A DNA stretch of 64,000 bases from an uncultured delta proteobacterium (GCA_963737265.1 CAVTRY010000011.1:448001-512000), one strand, 5' to 3'. Shown: positions 57,434 through 62,067, counted from the stretch's first letter. Translations and numbers: made by a program. Notes: generated by a model not told the origin, from the letters alone.

Positions 57434-58639
57434 GTGAATTCCACCCCTGATGTTCCCGTCGATGTCGCCGTGCTGGGCGCTGGTATCAGCGGGCTTTCCT
57501 TTGCACACCACAGCGCGCGCGCCGGACTGCGCACGCTGGTCCTCGAGAAAGCCGCCGCTCCCGGGGGCAGTATCCACACCGTGCGCACGCCCGAGGGCTT
57601 CTGGCTAGAGCTGGGCGCTCATACGCTTTACAACTCCTACGGAGCGCTGCTGGAAGTCGTCGCGGCGCTCGGTCTCGAGGAGCACGTCTTGCGGCGCCAG
57701 AAAGCACCGTACCGGCTTCTCATCGAAGGAAGACTGCGTTCGGTCCCGTCGCAACTCGCGCTGGGTGAATTGTTCGCGTCGGCATGGCGCATCTTCAGCG
57801 AGCGCAAAGACGGCCGCACCGTCGGTGACTACTACGGCCGACTGGTCGGCAAACGCAACTGGCGGTGCGTCTTCGCCCCGCTGCTGTCGGCCGTGCCCTC
57901 GCAGCGCGCTGACGACTTCCCGACCGAGATGCTGTTCAAGCGGCGTCCGCGTCGCAAGGATTTGCCGCGCAGCTTCACCCTGGAAGGCGGCCTGAACACG
58001 TTGATCGAACGGATCGTCCGCGCCGAGGGCATCACGGTGCAGGCGAATCGTGGGGCGCGCGCCATCAAGCGCACCGAGCGCGGTTTTCTCGTCAGCACCA
58101 ACGACGGCGCCAGCGTCGAGACGCGCAACCTGGTTTTGGCGCTGCCGCCGGATGCCGCCGCAGGCCTGCTCCTTCCCATCGCGCCCGGCGCGTCCGCGGT
58201 CCTTGCGCGCATTCGCATCGCCTCCATTGACTCTACTGGCGTGGTGATTGCCAAGCGCGACCTGTCCATCCCTCGCCTGGCCGGGCTCGTCCCGGTGGAC
58301 GACATCTTCTTCTCGGCGGTCAGCCGCGACGTGATTCCCGATGATCGCTTTCGCGCCCTCGCCTTCCACTTTCGCACCGGGCTCTCGCGCGACGAGCGAC
58401 TCGATCACATCGCCGCCGTGACCAAGACCACGCGCGCAAGCTTCGTCCACGTCGCCGAGCACGCGACCTCCCTGCCCTCGCCCGGCCTCGGCCATGCCGA
58501 TCTCGTGCGCGCCATCGACGAGAGCATCGCCGGCTCGCGCATCTTCATCACCGGCAACTACTTCGGCGGCCTGGCCCTCGAAGACTGCGTGCTGCGCTCG
58601 GTGGCCGAAAGTCGGCGCCTGGTTAGCGAGTGTAGATGA
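57434..58639 (+). CDS. FAD-dependent oxidoreductase (protoporphyrinogen/coproporphyrinogen oxidase-like)
   Basis: GAGISGL..A, LEK...PGG.I.T, LELGA, GNYFGG..LEDC. Confidence 0.8.
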   Translation: MNSTPDVPVDVAVLGAGISGLSFAHHSARAGLRTLVLEKAAAPGGSIHTVRTPEGFWLELGAHTLYNSYGALLEVVAALGLEEHVLRRQKAPYRLLIEGRLRSVPSQLALGELFASAWRIFSERKDGRTVGDYYGRLVGKRNWRCVFAPLLSAVPSQRADDFPTEMLFKRRPRRKDLPRSFTLEGGLNTLIERIVRAEGITVQANRGARAIKRTERGFLVSTNDGASVETRNLVLALPPDAAAGLLLPIAPGASAVLARIRIASIDSTGVVIAKRDLSIPRLAGLVPVDDIFFSAVSRDVIPDDRFRALAFHFRTGLSRDERLDHIAAVTKTTRASFVHVAEHATSLPSPGLGHADLVRAIDESIAGSRIFITGNYFGGLALEDCVLRSVAESRRLVSECR

Positions 58640-59756
58640 CGATTTCCCGGTTGTTGTCGGACGTCTTGCGCGCAATCGCGATCTTGTTTCCGCCCGCCGA
58701 CCACGGATAGGGCTGCTTGTCCGGCAGCGGGATCTCGCCGATGACGGTTACCTTCGCGCTCGCGGGATCGAGGCTGAAGAAATCGAGGGCAAAGCGTGTC
58801 GACTCGTTCATATCGCCGCGCTTTTGCCCTGGACGATCCGCGAGCAACGAGAACACCACCTTGCCGCCCAGCTGATGCTGCTCCAGCGACGTGGGATCGT
58901 AGTCTTGCTTCGGTACTGTCAGATCGATGGCACGAACCTTCTCGCCCGGCCCCACCAATTCGTACCCCTGCTGGCCTTCGGCCGGGACGATGACCGCCGG
59001 CAGATCGGGCTTCTCGCCCCGCTTGCGAACGTAGTCGAGAAAATTATCCAGCTTGGGGGGCGTTTTGCCCGGCCCCGTCTTGCCGCTCTTGATGTCGTAG
59101 AGCGCAAATTGCGGCGGTTGGCGCACGTCGGTCTTGCGGTTGTAGGCGCCGGGTTTCTCGACCATCGCGGCGAAATGGCTGTTGGTGAAACCAAAAAATG
59201 TCGCCCCGTCCAGCCCGGCAACGTTTCCGGCACTGTCGACCACCAAGTCGTGCAGCATGAGTGTCGATCCGTCGGGCCGGTAGGCCTGAATGCTGAAACG
59301 CCGGTTGCCCCCCGGTTCGGTCCTCTCCGAATAGGCCACGAATGCCTTGGGCGACGTGGAAATTTCACAAGAGTCGAACGACTCCGTGGTTCGGCGAATC
59401 CTGCCGCTGGAATCCACGATGGCGGCCCGGCGCTGGCCTTCGTTCGACACCACGAACCAGTAGCCAGCCAGTCCAAGAATCTTTTCCGGCGTGGCCGAGA
59501 AGCTGGCGATGTCGGAAACATGTTGCTTGCCCCCCGGCGGCCCGACGAGAAACTGCACGGCGCCCTTGGCGGTGAACTGGATGGTGGCCAGCTTGCCGCC
59601 GGTTTCGTCGAGCGCGAAGGCGTCGTGAAGCGTGCCTCCGCTGGCGGTAACCTTCCCGGAAGGCTTTAGGAGCTTGGGCGCTGCCAGAAGGGGGCCGCTG
59701 ATTAAACATGAGAGCGAGAGCGCGGACAGCGAGAGGAAGGTCATGCTGCGCTTCAT
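58623..59756 (-). CDS. Hypothetical secreted protein (possible beta-propeller)
   Basis: Signal peptide, beta-rich repeats. Confidence 0.7.
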   Translation of the reverse strand: MKRSMTFLSLSALSLSCLISGPLLAAPKLLKPSGKVTASGGTLHDAFALDETGGKLATIQFTAKGAVQFLVGPPGGKQHVSDIASFSATPEKILGLAGYWFVVSNEGQRRAAIVDSSGRIRRTTESFDSCEISTSPKAFVAYSERTEPGGNRRFSIQAYRPDGSTLMLHDLVVDSAGNVAGLDGATFFGFTNSHFAAMVEKPGAYNRKTDVRQPPQFALYDIKSGKTGPGKTPPKLDNFLDYVRKRGEKPDLPAVIVPAEGQQGYELVGPGEKVRAIDLTVPKQDYDPTSLEQHQLGGKVVFSLLADRPGQKRGDMNESTRFALDFFSLDPASAKVTVIGEIPLPDKQPYPWSAGGNKIAIARKTSDNNREIVIYTR

Positions 59757-59826
59757 GGCGCGCATCTTACGTCCATGTCGGAAGAATTCGTCAAGCCATT
59801 CGCGCCCCAGTTTGCCAACCCGTTGT

Positions 59827-60404
59827 GGGTGCCTCCCTGAAACGGGGGCCCCAGCCGGGGGCTCGGTGAGGTAGCAACTTCTGGCGGAGTGCCGCCGAAA
59901 ACGCAGATATGGAACAGCGAGGAACGGAGAAACAGAGACAGGATGACTTTACTGGGCAAATTATCGCCGCCTGCATCGAAGTCCACCGTCACCTCGGTCC
60001 CGGGCTGCTTGAGTCGGCCTACGAGCACTGCCTGGCGCGCGAGCTAGGCCTGCGTGGATTTCGCACGCAACGTCAGGTCGCGATTCCTCTGCAGTACAAA
60101 GGCATTGACCTCGACTGCGGCTATCGCCTCGACCTCATGGTGGAAGGCCGTTTGGTCGTCGAAGTCAAGGCGGTAGAGCAGTTGCTTCCTGTCCACTTGG
60201 CACAGTCATTACCTATCTCAAGCTCCTACGACTGCCGGTGGGCCTGCTCGTCAATTTCCACGTCCCCGTACTTCGCGAGGGTCTCCGCCGCCTCGTCAAC
60301 CCAACCCGTGATTCCTCTGGTCCTCCGTTCCTCCCTGTTTTTCCCTCCGATCCCACCTGCGCGGGGCGAGGTGAAGCCACAGCCCCCATTTCAGGGAAGC
60401 ACCC
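59827..60404. mobile_element. 578-bp non-autonomous mini-element (MITE-like) carrying a GxxExxY gene
   Basis: 23-bp TIRs GGGTGCCTCCCTGAAACGGGGGC / reverse complement GGGTGCTTCCCTGAAATGGGGGC (21/23); perfect 9-bp flanking direct repeat ACCCGTTGT at 59818-59826 and 60405-60413; no transposase. Confidence 0.8.
59909..60312 (+). CDS. GxxExxY protein (PD-(D/E)XK nuclease fold); 1-nt frameshift near 60205, 3' end uncertain
   Basis: EVHRHLGPGLLESAYEHCL, YRLDLMVE..VVEVKAV, then (shifted) TYLKLL..PVGLLVNF..LREGLRRLVN. Confidence 0.9.
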
Positions 60405-60456
60405 ACCCGTTGTTCGGATCTGTGTATCGGGACGAGACACGGCTACAATAGTTCCG

Positions 60457-61437
60457 GTGTACGCGAGCTTGATTCTGGCCACCGCTCAGGCCGCCCTGGT
60501 CACGGTTGCCCCTGGTCCGAGCGACAACTGCCCGTCTTCGGCGCAGGTGCTGGCAGCGCTCGAATCACACGCACCAGCCTTGATAGCGCCAGGCACGGAT
60601 GGCGATTCGGCCGGCCAAACGACCTTGGTGCTCTCACCCGCGTTGGCCACCGGTGAGATCACCTTCTTCCTCCTCGACGGGGCTGGCCGCGTGAAACTGA
60701 ATCGCACCTTGCCTCCTCCCGATGGAGATCGCGGGCGCGACTGCGCCGCGCTTGCCGACACCGTGGCCTTGATCGTCGACCGCTACTACAACGAGGTCGA
60801 ACTGCCTCCGCTGCCCGAGAAAAAGGCCAAGGCCGAGCCAGCGCCCGCGCCACCTTCACAAAAGCTCGCGCGCGAGCCTGAGCTCAAGCCCCAGATCGAG
60901 GCTGGAAAGTACGCGCTTTCCCTAGGTACAGGCAGACGGACGCCGGACTCCGCGACGTATCTTGGCGGAGACGAGATTAGCCTGATAGGCGGAATGGCCG
61001 TGGCTGGGTTTGGACGGCGCGGAGGGCGGCTGTGGCTCGAAACGTCCGCGGGCATCGTGGGGATTGGGATTGTGTATTGGGGCTGGCCGCAGGGGAATGT
61101 GACCGTCGTCCGCACCGCTTGGGGTCTGTCTGCTCTGCTGGCCTGGCCGGTGTGGCGCGGGCGCCTCTACGCGGGCGCGTCGACTTCCGTCGAGTACCTC
61201 TGGTTAGATGCCACGTCCAACAGCCACCTCCAGCATGAAACGCGTCTGGCTTCGTCTTCCGGCCTGCGTGCTGGCTACTTGCTCTTCTTGCGAGAACACA
61301 TCTTCGTTCGAACGGACTTGGGCGGCGACGTCGCCACTGTGCGCTATAGACTTGCAACGCAAAGCGGCTCTGGCACGCTGCTTAGCGCACCGCGGGTTTT
61401 CGCCACGGTAGCCATTGGCGTTGGAATTTCCTTCTGA
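60457..61437 (+). CDS. Secreted hypothetical protein with C-terminal beta-barrel-like region
   Basis: CPS...C.ALAD..AL motif typical of myxobacterial proteins; ends GVGISF. Confidence 0.7.
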   Translation: MYASLILATAQAALVTVAPGPSDNCPSSAQVLAALESHAPALIAPGTDGDSAGQTTLVLSPALATGEITFFLLDGAGRVKLNRTLPPPDGDRGRDCAALADTVALIVDRYYNEVELPPLPEKKAKAEPAPAPPSQKLAREPELKPQIEAGKYALSLGTGRRTPDSATYLGGDEISLIGGMAVAGFGRRGGRLWLETSAGIVGIGIVYWGWPQGNVTVVRTAWGLSALLAWPVWRGRLYAGASTSVEYLWLDATSNSHLQHETRLASSSGLRAGYLLFLREHIFVRTDLGGDVATVRYRLATQSGSGTLLSAPRVFATVAIGVGISF

Positions 61438-61488
61438 TCTGGGATGATGAAGTCTGGCCAGCACGGTCTCTAATAGATAAAGGCAACG

Positions 61489-62067
61489 ATGGGACAAAAG
61501 CAGTTCACCAAAACCCCATTGCCGATGCCAGGGGCGGCGGCTGACGCCGAGCTTGTGCGGTTGTGCAGGGAAGGAGATACGGCGGCCTGGCGCAGCCTCT
61601 ATGATCGCCACGCGCCGTCGGTTTATCGTTTCACCGCCGCGCTTGGCGTGCCGGCCGAGGAGCGCGAGGATGCGGCGCAAGACATCTTCATCGCCGTCTT
61701 CCGTAGTCTGCGCCATTTTCGCGGGGAGGCGCAGCTATCCACCTGGATCTACCGAATCGCCGCGCGCCACGCGATTCGACTTGGGCGACGGCGACGAGCG
61801 CGCGAGATGATGCGCGCGGTCATGCTGAAAGAGTCGCCCCATCCCACCATCGACCCCGCCGAACGGTCGACACAAATCGCGACCCTCGACCGAATGCTGG
61901 CCAAACTTCCCCTGAAAAAGCGAACCGTCCTCGTTCTGTTCGAGATCGAAGGGCTGTCGGCCAAAGAGATTTCCGACGTCGTTGGGTGCCCCGAGAACAC
62001 CGTCTGGTCGCGCCTTCACCATGCGCGGGCCGAGATGGTTGCGGTGGCAAGGAGAATGGTGTCATGA
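61489..62067 (+). CDS. ECF RNA polymerase sigma-70 factor
   Basis: EDAAQDIF, FRGEAQLSTWIYRIA, EGLS..EI...NTVWSRLHHAR. Confidence 0.95.
   Translation: MGQKQFTKTPLPMPGAAADAELVRLCREGDTAAWRSLYDRHAPSVYRFTAALGVPAEEREDAAQDIFIAVFRSLRHFRGEAQLSTWIYRIAARHAIRLGRRRRAREMMRAVMLKESPHPTIDPAERSTQIATLDRMLAKLPLKKRTVLVLFEIEGLSAKEISDVVGCPENTVWSRLHHARAEMVAVARRMVS

Follow-up and report, generated by a model that had tools for sequence, protein, structure and literature searches.

We identified, in a 64,000-nt stretch of DNA from an uncultured delta proteobacterium (hereafter the window), a short element that is very probably a non-autonomous mobile insertion cassette of the ISKra4 group, i.e. a MITE with a passenger, bearing a captured GxxExxY module. 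It is classed as a mobile insertion cassette rather than as a plain MITE because it carries a gene. In the genome to which the window belongs (G000; 6.55 Mb in 25 contigs, 99.5% complete, 63% G+C), copies of this element contain 42 of the 43 matches to PF13366, the GxxExxY family. Judged from the closest relatives with a name, the genome falls among metagenome-assembled genomes of Myxococcales/Deltaproteobacteria. An earlier note on the window had proposed a transposase-free, mobilizable MITE with a passenger; the multiple copies, their target-site duplications, the empty sites in congeners and a related insertion sequence (IS) in the same genome all speak for this proposal.

Structure of the element and its genomic copies

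The window copy is flanked by perfect 9-bp direct repeats, ACCCGTTGT, at 59818-59826 and 60405-60413, seen both in the sequence itself and by repeat finding. Immediately inside lie 23-bp terminal inverted repeats (TIRs): the left one, GGGTGCCTCCCTGAAACGGGGGC, occupies 59827-59849 on the plus strand (repeat finding and end scan), and the right one occupies 60382-60404 and reads GGGTGCTTCCCTGAAATGGGGGC on the minus strand. The inverted ends start with GGGTGC, are complementary at 21 of 23 positions (the repeat finder extended them to 25 nt at 92%) and enclose 578 bp. Both kinds of repeat had been described in the earlier note, at the same places and with the same degree of matching.

Three parts, all given for the plus strand, can be told apart between the TIRs. 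The left backbone (59850-59866) is absent from the cargo relatives found in sister species, the right backbone (60358-60381) is unmatched in the cassettes of these relatives, and between the two a putatively captured GxxExxY cassette at 59867-60357 (element positions 41-532) comprises a leader, the gene and two arms. The GxxExxY gene, delineated by gene calling and a profile match, extends from 59909 to 60300 and is frameshifted in this copy. The arms form a nested inverted repeat of 25 nt (88%, 22 of 25 positions). Its purine-rich 5′ arm (59913-59937), built of phased ~8-nt words, lies over the first codons, and its pyrimidine-rich 3′ arm (60315-60339) pairs with the 5′ arm in the RNA fold.

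The sole family match inside the window element in a profile search was PF13366 (PDDEXK_3) with E-value 1.9e-29. The same search found no transposase gene inside the element; all matches to the transposase profile NF033572 are located elsewhere in the genome. The 578-bp interior is thus free of a transposase, as had been claimed. An Rfam scan of 59000-61200 gave a chance-level match alone (13.6 bits versus a gathering score of 210), and a consensus scan of 59600-60600 for promoters and terminators called none, including no promoter internal to the element.

A blastn search with the window element against its own genome produced 44 pieces, which correspond to ~39 copies, 31 of them full-length and 8 either partial or interrupted, with identities from 93 to 100%. 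The full-length copies are 564-580 bp long (mode 579), and the matches are all bounded by the inverted ends; the left TIR is constant over all full-length copies, bar 0-2 variant bases. A perfect 9-bp duplication is present in 29 of the 31 full-length copies; in one more the duplication is offset by one base and in the last it has two mismatches. The duplicated 9-mer varies from site to site, the single exception being two adjacent tandem copies. Multiple copies, each with its own 9-bp duplication, are what the earlier note had expected of a transposing unit.

The tandem pair (C17:62354-63520) consists of members of different subfamilies. Here one target position was hit twice, because GCGCCACGG stands three times: before, between and after the two copies. 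The pair sits 16 bp upstream of a good promoter (TTGACC, 17-nt spacer, GATACT). The older subfamily has four copies, with ~93% identity, a 10-bp deletion and a variant end; the two subfamilies, at 93 and 99% identity, differ in age.

Of the eight copies that are not full-length, four are interrupted: a 1428-bp IS lies in two, a 187-bp insert in a third and a 116-bp insert in the fourth. Three of the remaining copies are truncated, and the last has an internal deletion. The 1428-bp IS (G000:C20:14672-16099 and G000:C23:162589-164016 within the two element copies) has ends CATAGGCATTAACCC, contains an open frame of 441 aa and occurs in ten copies in this genome. The 187-bp insert (G000:C13:548132-548318) has inverted ends AGGGCCA(A/T)CGCATC and a 12-bp duplication, GAGGGTCTCCGC, and is probably another small MITE. 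The cargo is broken twice at element position ~182, by the 116-bp insert (C20:7510-7625) and by the internal deletion (C12:402741-403101). This position falls in the DNA for the GxxExxY motif, and a deletion seen in two sister genomes (G003 and G004) begins there too. Copies with and without the GxxExxY gene had also been anticipated: in one copy the gene is internally deleted, but no copy with these ends and wholly without the gene was found in G000.

The GxxExxY gene and its repeat-bracketed module

The window copy of the gene scores 102.9 bits against PF13366, compared with up to 140.9 bits for intact copies. Its match ends at profile position 89, and the domain continues in another frame, where a second protein was matched. 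The window copy lacks a G after 60204 that 23 of the 31 full-length copies have. The missing G is common to 8 of the 31 copies, which do not form a clean clade; transposition of the frameshifted variant itself was dropped as evidence for this reason, and recurrent errors or gene conversion may account for the recurrence. In public reads (Logan contigs from four soil-metagenome runs of one study) the G is present in contigs of all four runs. The window frameshift may be real or an assembly error, as no G-bearing contig links to the window locus. The window copy reads as a frameshifted pseudogene, with the reservation that many of the single-base indels may be assembly errors. Thus, of the earlier claim that the element encodes one GxxExxY protein, the family assignment holds and the intact frame does not.

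A frame from the start codon to the right end is kept in 15 of the 31 full-length copies. The intact cargo frame meets no stop codon before the right end of the element and therefore continues into the host DNA; the read-out frames (from 60405 onward in the window) range from 179 to 414 aa depending on the site. Nearly half of the element-borne PF13366 matches (20 of 42) span the profile from position 2 or 3 to position 115 or 116. Substitution events among the copies are distributed over the three codon positions as 12:9:14, and substitution density is 0.085 to 0.096 per site, alike in the leader, the gene and the tail. Since there is no codon-position bias and density is equal in coding and non-coding parts, no purifying selection on the gene after insertion is seen.

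In the 31-sequence alignment of the family, three residues (E35, E85 and K87) do not vary and a fourth, D75, is almost invariant. The AlphaFold model based on this alignment is confident, with pLDDT of 89.5. Its Foldseek comparison with the PDB produced only weak matches (E > 0.01 throughout) to PD-(D/E)XK proteins, namely Cas4 SSO0001, Hjc and lambda exonuclease, and no PDB sequence matched the family profile at E <= 1. We found no report in the literature of the putative nuclease activity of GxxExxY.

Apart from the element copies, the genome has a single GxxExxY gene (C22:198374-198724), located immediately upstream of a recA-like gene and with the same layout. It is accompanied by an inverted repeat of ~50 nt made of phased CACAGAG-like words, with a purine-rich 5′ arm over the first codons and a complementary arm over the last codons. 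We fetched 80 related loci from other species and scored 72 of them for the best inverted repeat across the gene; the other eight were left out, mostly as the gene was too near a contig end. The median arm score was 36.5 versus a control mean of 21; the score exceeded the locus's own best control by more than 8 in 34 of the 72 loci and did not in 38. A few controls scored high from neighbouring repeats. In 16 loci inspected, across phyla, the arms consist of about three words of 8-9 nt, e.g. ACCACAGAG-GACACAGAG-GGCACAGAG, and their position relative to the start codon varies. We found no publication on mobility or repeat-bracketing of GxxExxY (PDDEXK_3) genes.

Relatives of the cargo occur in sister genomes without the ends of the element. 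Genome G005 has element positions 41-514 at 91% identity, without ends, and this unit is preceded by the truncated tail of another unit. This head-to-tail junction sets the limits of the cassette at element positions 41-532 (59867-60357 in the window); the extent is also supported by the match ranges in G005, G009, G003 and G004. Genome G009 has two cargo copies at 81-82% identity (element positions 47-523 at 82%), so that homology to the copies of G005 and G009 starts at element position 41-47. Genomes G003 and G004 have many internally deleted forms, in which positions 80-180 are joined to 455-536; these lie in another repeat backbone with different inverted ends. The cargo can thus be separated from the transposon ends.

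The G003 and G004 repeats (L024, L025 and L031-L041) are apparently ~390 bp long, have ends of the type GGAACCCT..AGGGCAGCCCTTTCAAGG and are flanked by further palindromic repeats. A similarity between the right flank in the window and this repeat was considered and set aside as unconvincing (11 of 500 shuffles reached its score).

Insertion sites and relation to ISKra4-group elements

The window copy lies in a divergent promoter region, as the earlier note had stated: a minus-strand gene (58623-59765) starts at 59765 and a plus-strand gene (60457-61437) starts at 60457 with GTG. Neither gene has a family match. The host promoter beside the insertion (60421-60449, plus strand) has a −35-like TGTGTA, a 17-nt spacer and a −10 box TACAAT. 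It was not called by the consensus scan, its −35 being below the scan threshold. We searched 58700-61500 against 12 other genomes of the genus; the flanking genes are adjacent in several of them, and five loci were aligned. The TACAAT box at 60444-60449 is invariant in the window and the five congeners, and the GTG start is conserved in all six sequences.

The insertion is absent at the orthologous site in four of the five aligned congeners (G001, G004, G008 and G002), which have a short intergenic region there. In the fifth (G009) the site has a different small palindromic repeat (L138), related to the palindromes of the G003 and G004 repeats. The target 9-mer is not conserved in the congeners, because the intergenic DNA is only ~70% alike. 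An empty site, expected from the earlier note, is therefore seen as a missing insertion in four of five congeners and not as a conserved single 9-mer. In the public reads, contigs of the four runs break at the element ends and depth is ~10× higher inside the element than in its flanks, as expected for a repeat; no joint skipping the element was found in these contigs.

To characterize the flanks of the 31 full-length copies, TTG was counted outward from the duplication at offsets 0 to 49. At offset +8, i.e. 16 bp from the element end, TTG was present in 8 of the 31 right flanks and in 5 of the 31 left flanks, and at every other offset in 0-2 flanks. Given the genome-wide TTG frequency of 0.0138, the right-side count has a binomial p-value of 8e-9. 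At the +8 offset, TTGACA is matched in five or six of its six positions by six right flanks, and seven of the eight right flanks with TTG have an nAnnnT box 16-18 nt beyond it; the signal is limited to 13 of the 31 copies. The window copy fits this spacing (TGTGTA 16 bp from the element end, 17 nt, TACAAT), with a weak −35. Guerillot et al. 2014 (PMC3942029) report that elements of the ISKra4 group insert at a distance of 13-17 bp upstream of sigma-A promoters and that elements whose two ends are nearly alike have promoters on both flanks. The 16-bp distance to the −35 box found here lies in this range; the ends of the element are 91% alike, and the TTG signal appears on either side. Co-oriented ORFs follow downstream in 21 of 31 cases on either side, a crude count discarded as uninformative in a genome with 63% G+C.

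The ends themselves also point to this group. GGG ends and 9-bp duplications are features of ISKra4-group elements. A scan of G000 with the 23-nt ends, allowing up to five mismatches, gave 76 matches, 73 of them inside element copies. The sole other end pair bounds a single-copy IS of 2120 bp (G000:C20:66979-69098, the C20 IS), whose ends, GGGTGCCTAACCGAAACGGGGGA (GGGTGCCT...GAAACGGGGG), match those of the element at 19 of 23 positions. It is flanked by a perfect 9-bp duplication, GGAAAGCGG, and encodes an intact protein of 466 aa scoring 256.9 bits against NF033572 (ISKra4 family; cut-off 205). The earlier note had called for an autonomous IS with such ends; the C20 IS, with its related ends, is a candidate for it in the same genome. 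Downstream of the transposase the C20 IS has a second ORF of 141 aa (G000:C20:68536-68961; L021 3058-3483), with no Pfam or NCBIfam match. Similarity of the element to the C20 IS is restricted to the 22-bp ends, with nothing internal, so that the element is not a simple deletion derivative of this IS.

A second ISKra4-like IS in the genome is 1782 bp long, with ten full-length matches and one partial match, ends GGGTGGGTTGCACGGG of the GGGTG type and a perfect 9-bp duplication in three of the four copies read; no clear promoter targeting was seen in ten flanks of this IS. For the other ISKra4-like genes of G000 the ends are unrelated or none were found. Given that the C20 IS and the 1782-bp IS both show GGGTG ends and 9-bp duplications, the combination is the local signature of the ISKra4 family. 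The element itself has no NF033572 transposase, so it can only be a derivative of the ISKra4 group.

We scanned 89 genomes of the order for the end pattern with up to two mismatches. The pattern was found 73 times in G000 (in element copies), four times in G009 (three of the four at contig ends), twice in G018, once each in G011 and G100, and in none of the 84 other genomes. In G018 the exact ends stand alone: neither a partner end within 3.3 kb nor a transposase match accompanies them. A search of 400 bp around 65 GxxExxY loci of other species found inverted ends combined with a 9-bp duplication in none of them; the window, used as a positive control, was found. Packaging of the gene between TIRs and 9-bp duplications is thus specific to this lineage and was followed by a burst.

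Mobilization, cargo and related systems

According to our preferred explanation, a GxxExxY module would have become enclosed by ISKra4-type ends, either through capture or by inserting into a small ISKra4 MITE, given that the module occurs without these ends in sister species and, with different arm sequences, in many phyla. The absence from G000 of a gene-free copy keeping the ends is compatible with both orders of events. The resulting cassette would be moved in trans by an ISKra4-family transposase and would insert upstream of promoters without destroying them. A passive and recent amplification of the module would then account for the presence of 42 of the 43 PF13366 matches in element copies, which would drift neutrally after insertion.

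The earlier note also considered that GxxExxY itself targets or mobilizes the MITE. In such a case the protein would act as a tiny nuclease-type transposase or homing enzyme, with the GGGTGC ends as its recognition sites. The gene is indeed the only ORF inside the element, the frame from start to right end is kept in 15 of the 31 copies, residues of catalytic type (E35, D75, E85 and K87) are conserved in the alignment of the family and the modelled fold weakly resembles PD-(D/E)XK nucleases. Yet the signature is that of ISKra4-group DDE transposition: its type of ends, a 9-bp duplication and a constant distance from the −35 box; GxxExxY genes elsewhere have different arms, with none of 65 loci packaged in TIRs and 9-bp duplications; G005 holds the same cargo lineage without these ends; and no purifying selection acts on the gene among the copies. 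We therefore consider mobilization by GxxExxY very unlikely. It is improbable, too, though less so, that the cargo was retained as useful to the element or the host, e.g. as a defence nuclease or in processing of hairpin intermediates. An intact domain in the majority sequence, the tie of the cargo lineage to another repeat backbone as well (in G003 and G004) and at least one copy keeping the frame from start to right end in both subfamilies (93 and 99%) would agree with a useful cargo; but substitutions have no codon-position bias, about half of the full-length copies are broken, the copies in G003 and G004 are numerous despite having lost most of the gene, and no promoter was called inside the element.

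As to the transposase acting on the mobile insertion cassette, the C20 IS, the single intact candidate, would be the likeliest helper; judging from its related ends we assign it this role tentatively, as something close to an even call. Its ends match at only 19 of 23 positions and the similarity stops at 22 bp. The true helper may be another element, lost or unassembled (the genome is in 25 contigs), and it is quite possible, if short of probable, that an autonomous element with exact ends was lost, is unassembled or resides in another replicon or strain. Besides the four differing end positions of the C20 IS and its lack of internal similarity, this possibility draws on G009, where ends that differ from the search pattern at 1-2 positions (and from either MITE end at 2-4) lie at contig ends. 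Such contig breaks are typical of a multicopy element, and one of the G009 ends is followed by a possible start of a basic N-terminus. The 99-100% identity of the copies, by which the burst is recent, fits as well. Against it, G000 is 99.5% complete, no further end pair was detected there at up to five mismatches, and the remaining ISKra4-like genes have unrelated ends or none that were found; cross-mobilization of MITEs by a related transposase is, moreover, common. A search with the C20 transposase as the one query in the fragmented assemblies of G009, G005, G018, G003 and G004 did not find it.

A further reading concerns the module rather than its vehicle. The same cargo lineage is present in at least two repeat backbones within the genus, the ISKra4-type one in G000 and the other inverted-end repeat in G003 and G004. 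The repeat-armed GxxExxY module could conceivably be an independent selfish unit that repeatedly colonizes small DDE-transposon backbones, or is captured by them, as vehicles, although we regard this as unlikely. If true, two layers of selfish DNA would cooperate, the large GxxExxY paralogue families of many phyla would arise partly in this way and the hairpin-forming arms or the ends might be substrates of the nuclease.

Understood as an ISKra4-group mobile insertion cassette, the element can be compared with several known systems. A known mobile insertion cassette (MIC) is MIC231 of Bacillus cereus, and ~39 copies is a high number for a MIC. In ISfinder usage MICs and MITEs are non-autonomous derivatives of ISs (PMC3129680). 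The element shares with them TIRs, target duplications, lack of a transposase and, probably, mobilization in trans by a related IS, and with MICs also the passenger gene. It differs from MICs in its ISKra4-group ends and in its passenger, a repeat-bracketed, selfish-looking module rather than a resistance or metabolic gene. With ISKra4-group ISs (p-MULT 4; NF033572) it shares ends of the GGGTG type and duplications of 9 bp, both seen also in the two ISs of G000, as well as the fixed insertion distance of 16 bp upstream of the −35 box, on either side if the two ends are nearly alike (PMC3942029); unlike these ISs it has no transposase. The term MITE does not occur in the text of that paper. Pack-MULEs of plants are non-autonomous Mutator-like elements carrying host gene fragments (PMC3942029). 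Similarly, the element is a non-autonomous member of the Mutator superfamily with a captured coding sequence and a preference for 5′ ends of genes, but it is prokaryotic, and its cargo is a complete small gene that brings its own arms, instead of host fragments.

The element resembles other repeat-bracketed GxxExxY cassettes in that its PF13366 gene is enclosed by inverted arms, which are made up of some three phased words of 8-9 nt. Its arms, however, are degenerate (22/25), and its multiplication is explained by the outer DDE-transposon ends and not by the arms. A small gene between short inverted repeats and many genomic copies are also reminiscent of REP/REPIN sequences with their RAYTs. 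RAYTs are HUH (Y1) transposases, whereas the gene of the element is of the PD-(D/E)XK type (PF13366), and the element copies have classical TIRs and 9-bp duplications, which REPINs, to our knowledge, lack.

MITEs, MICs and promoter targeting by the ISKra4 group are already known, and Pack-MULEs are a eukaryotic analogue. What appears to be new is that an ISKra4-derived cassette reaches ~39 copies, that its cargo, a nuclease-like gene, is repeat-bracketed and selfish-looking in its own right, and that nearly all GxxExxY paralogues of one genome originated by the spread of a cassette. The element would represent a clean bacterial counterpart of plant Pack-MULEs, i.e. a gene-bearing, Mutator-like, non-autonomous element, and its 31 natural insertion sites, including the double hit on one 9-mer, display the promoter-distance targeting of the ISKra4 group. 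For annotation the finding is a warning, as most GxxExxY ‘genes’ in such genomes would be repeat copies, many of them broken. Copies with intact and with broken genes in otherwise identical contexts offer a handle on the GxxExxY module, and the spread of the cassette would provide a concrete mechanism by which a family of unknown function reaches dozens of copies in one genome.
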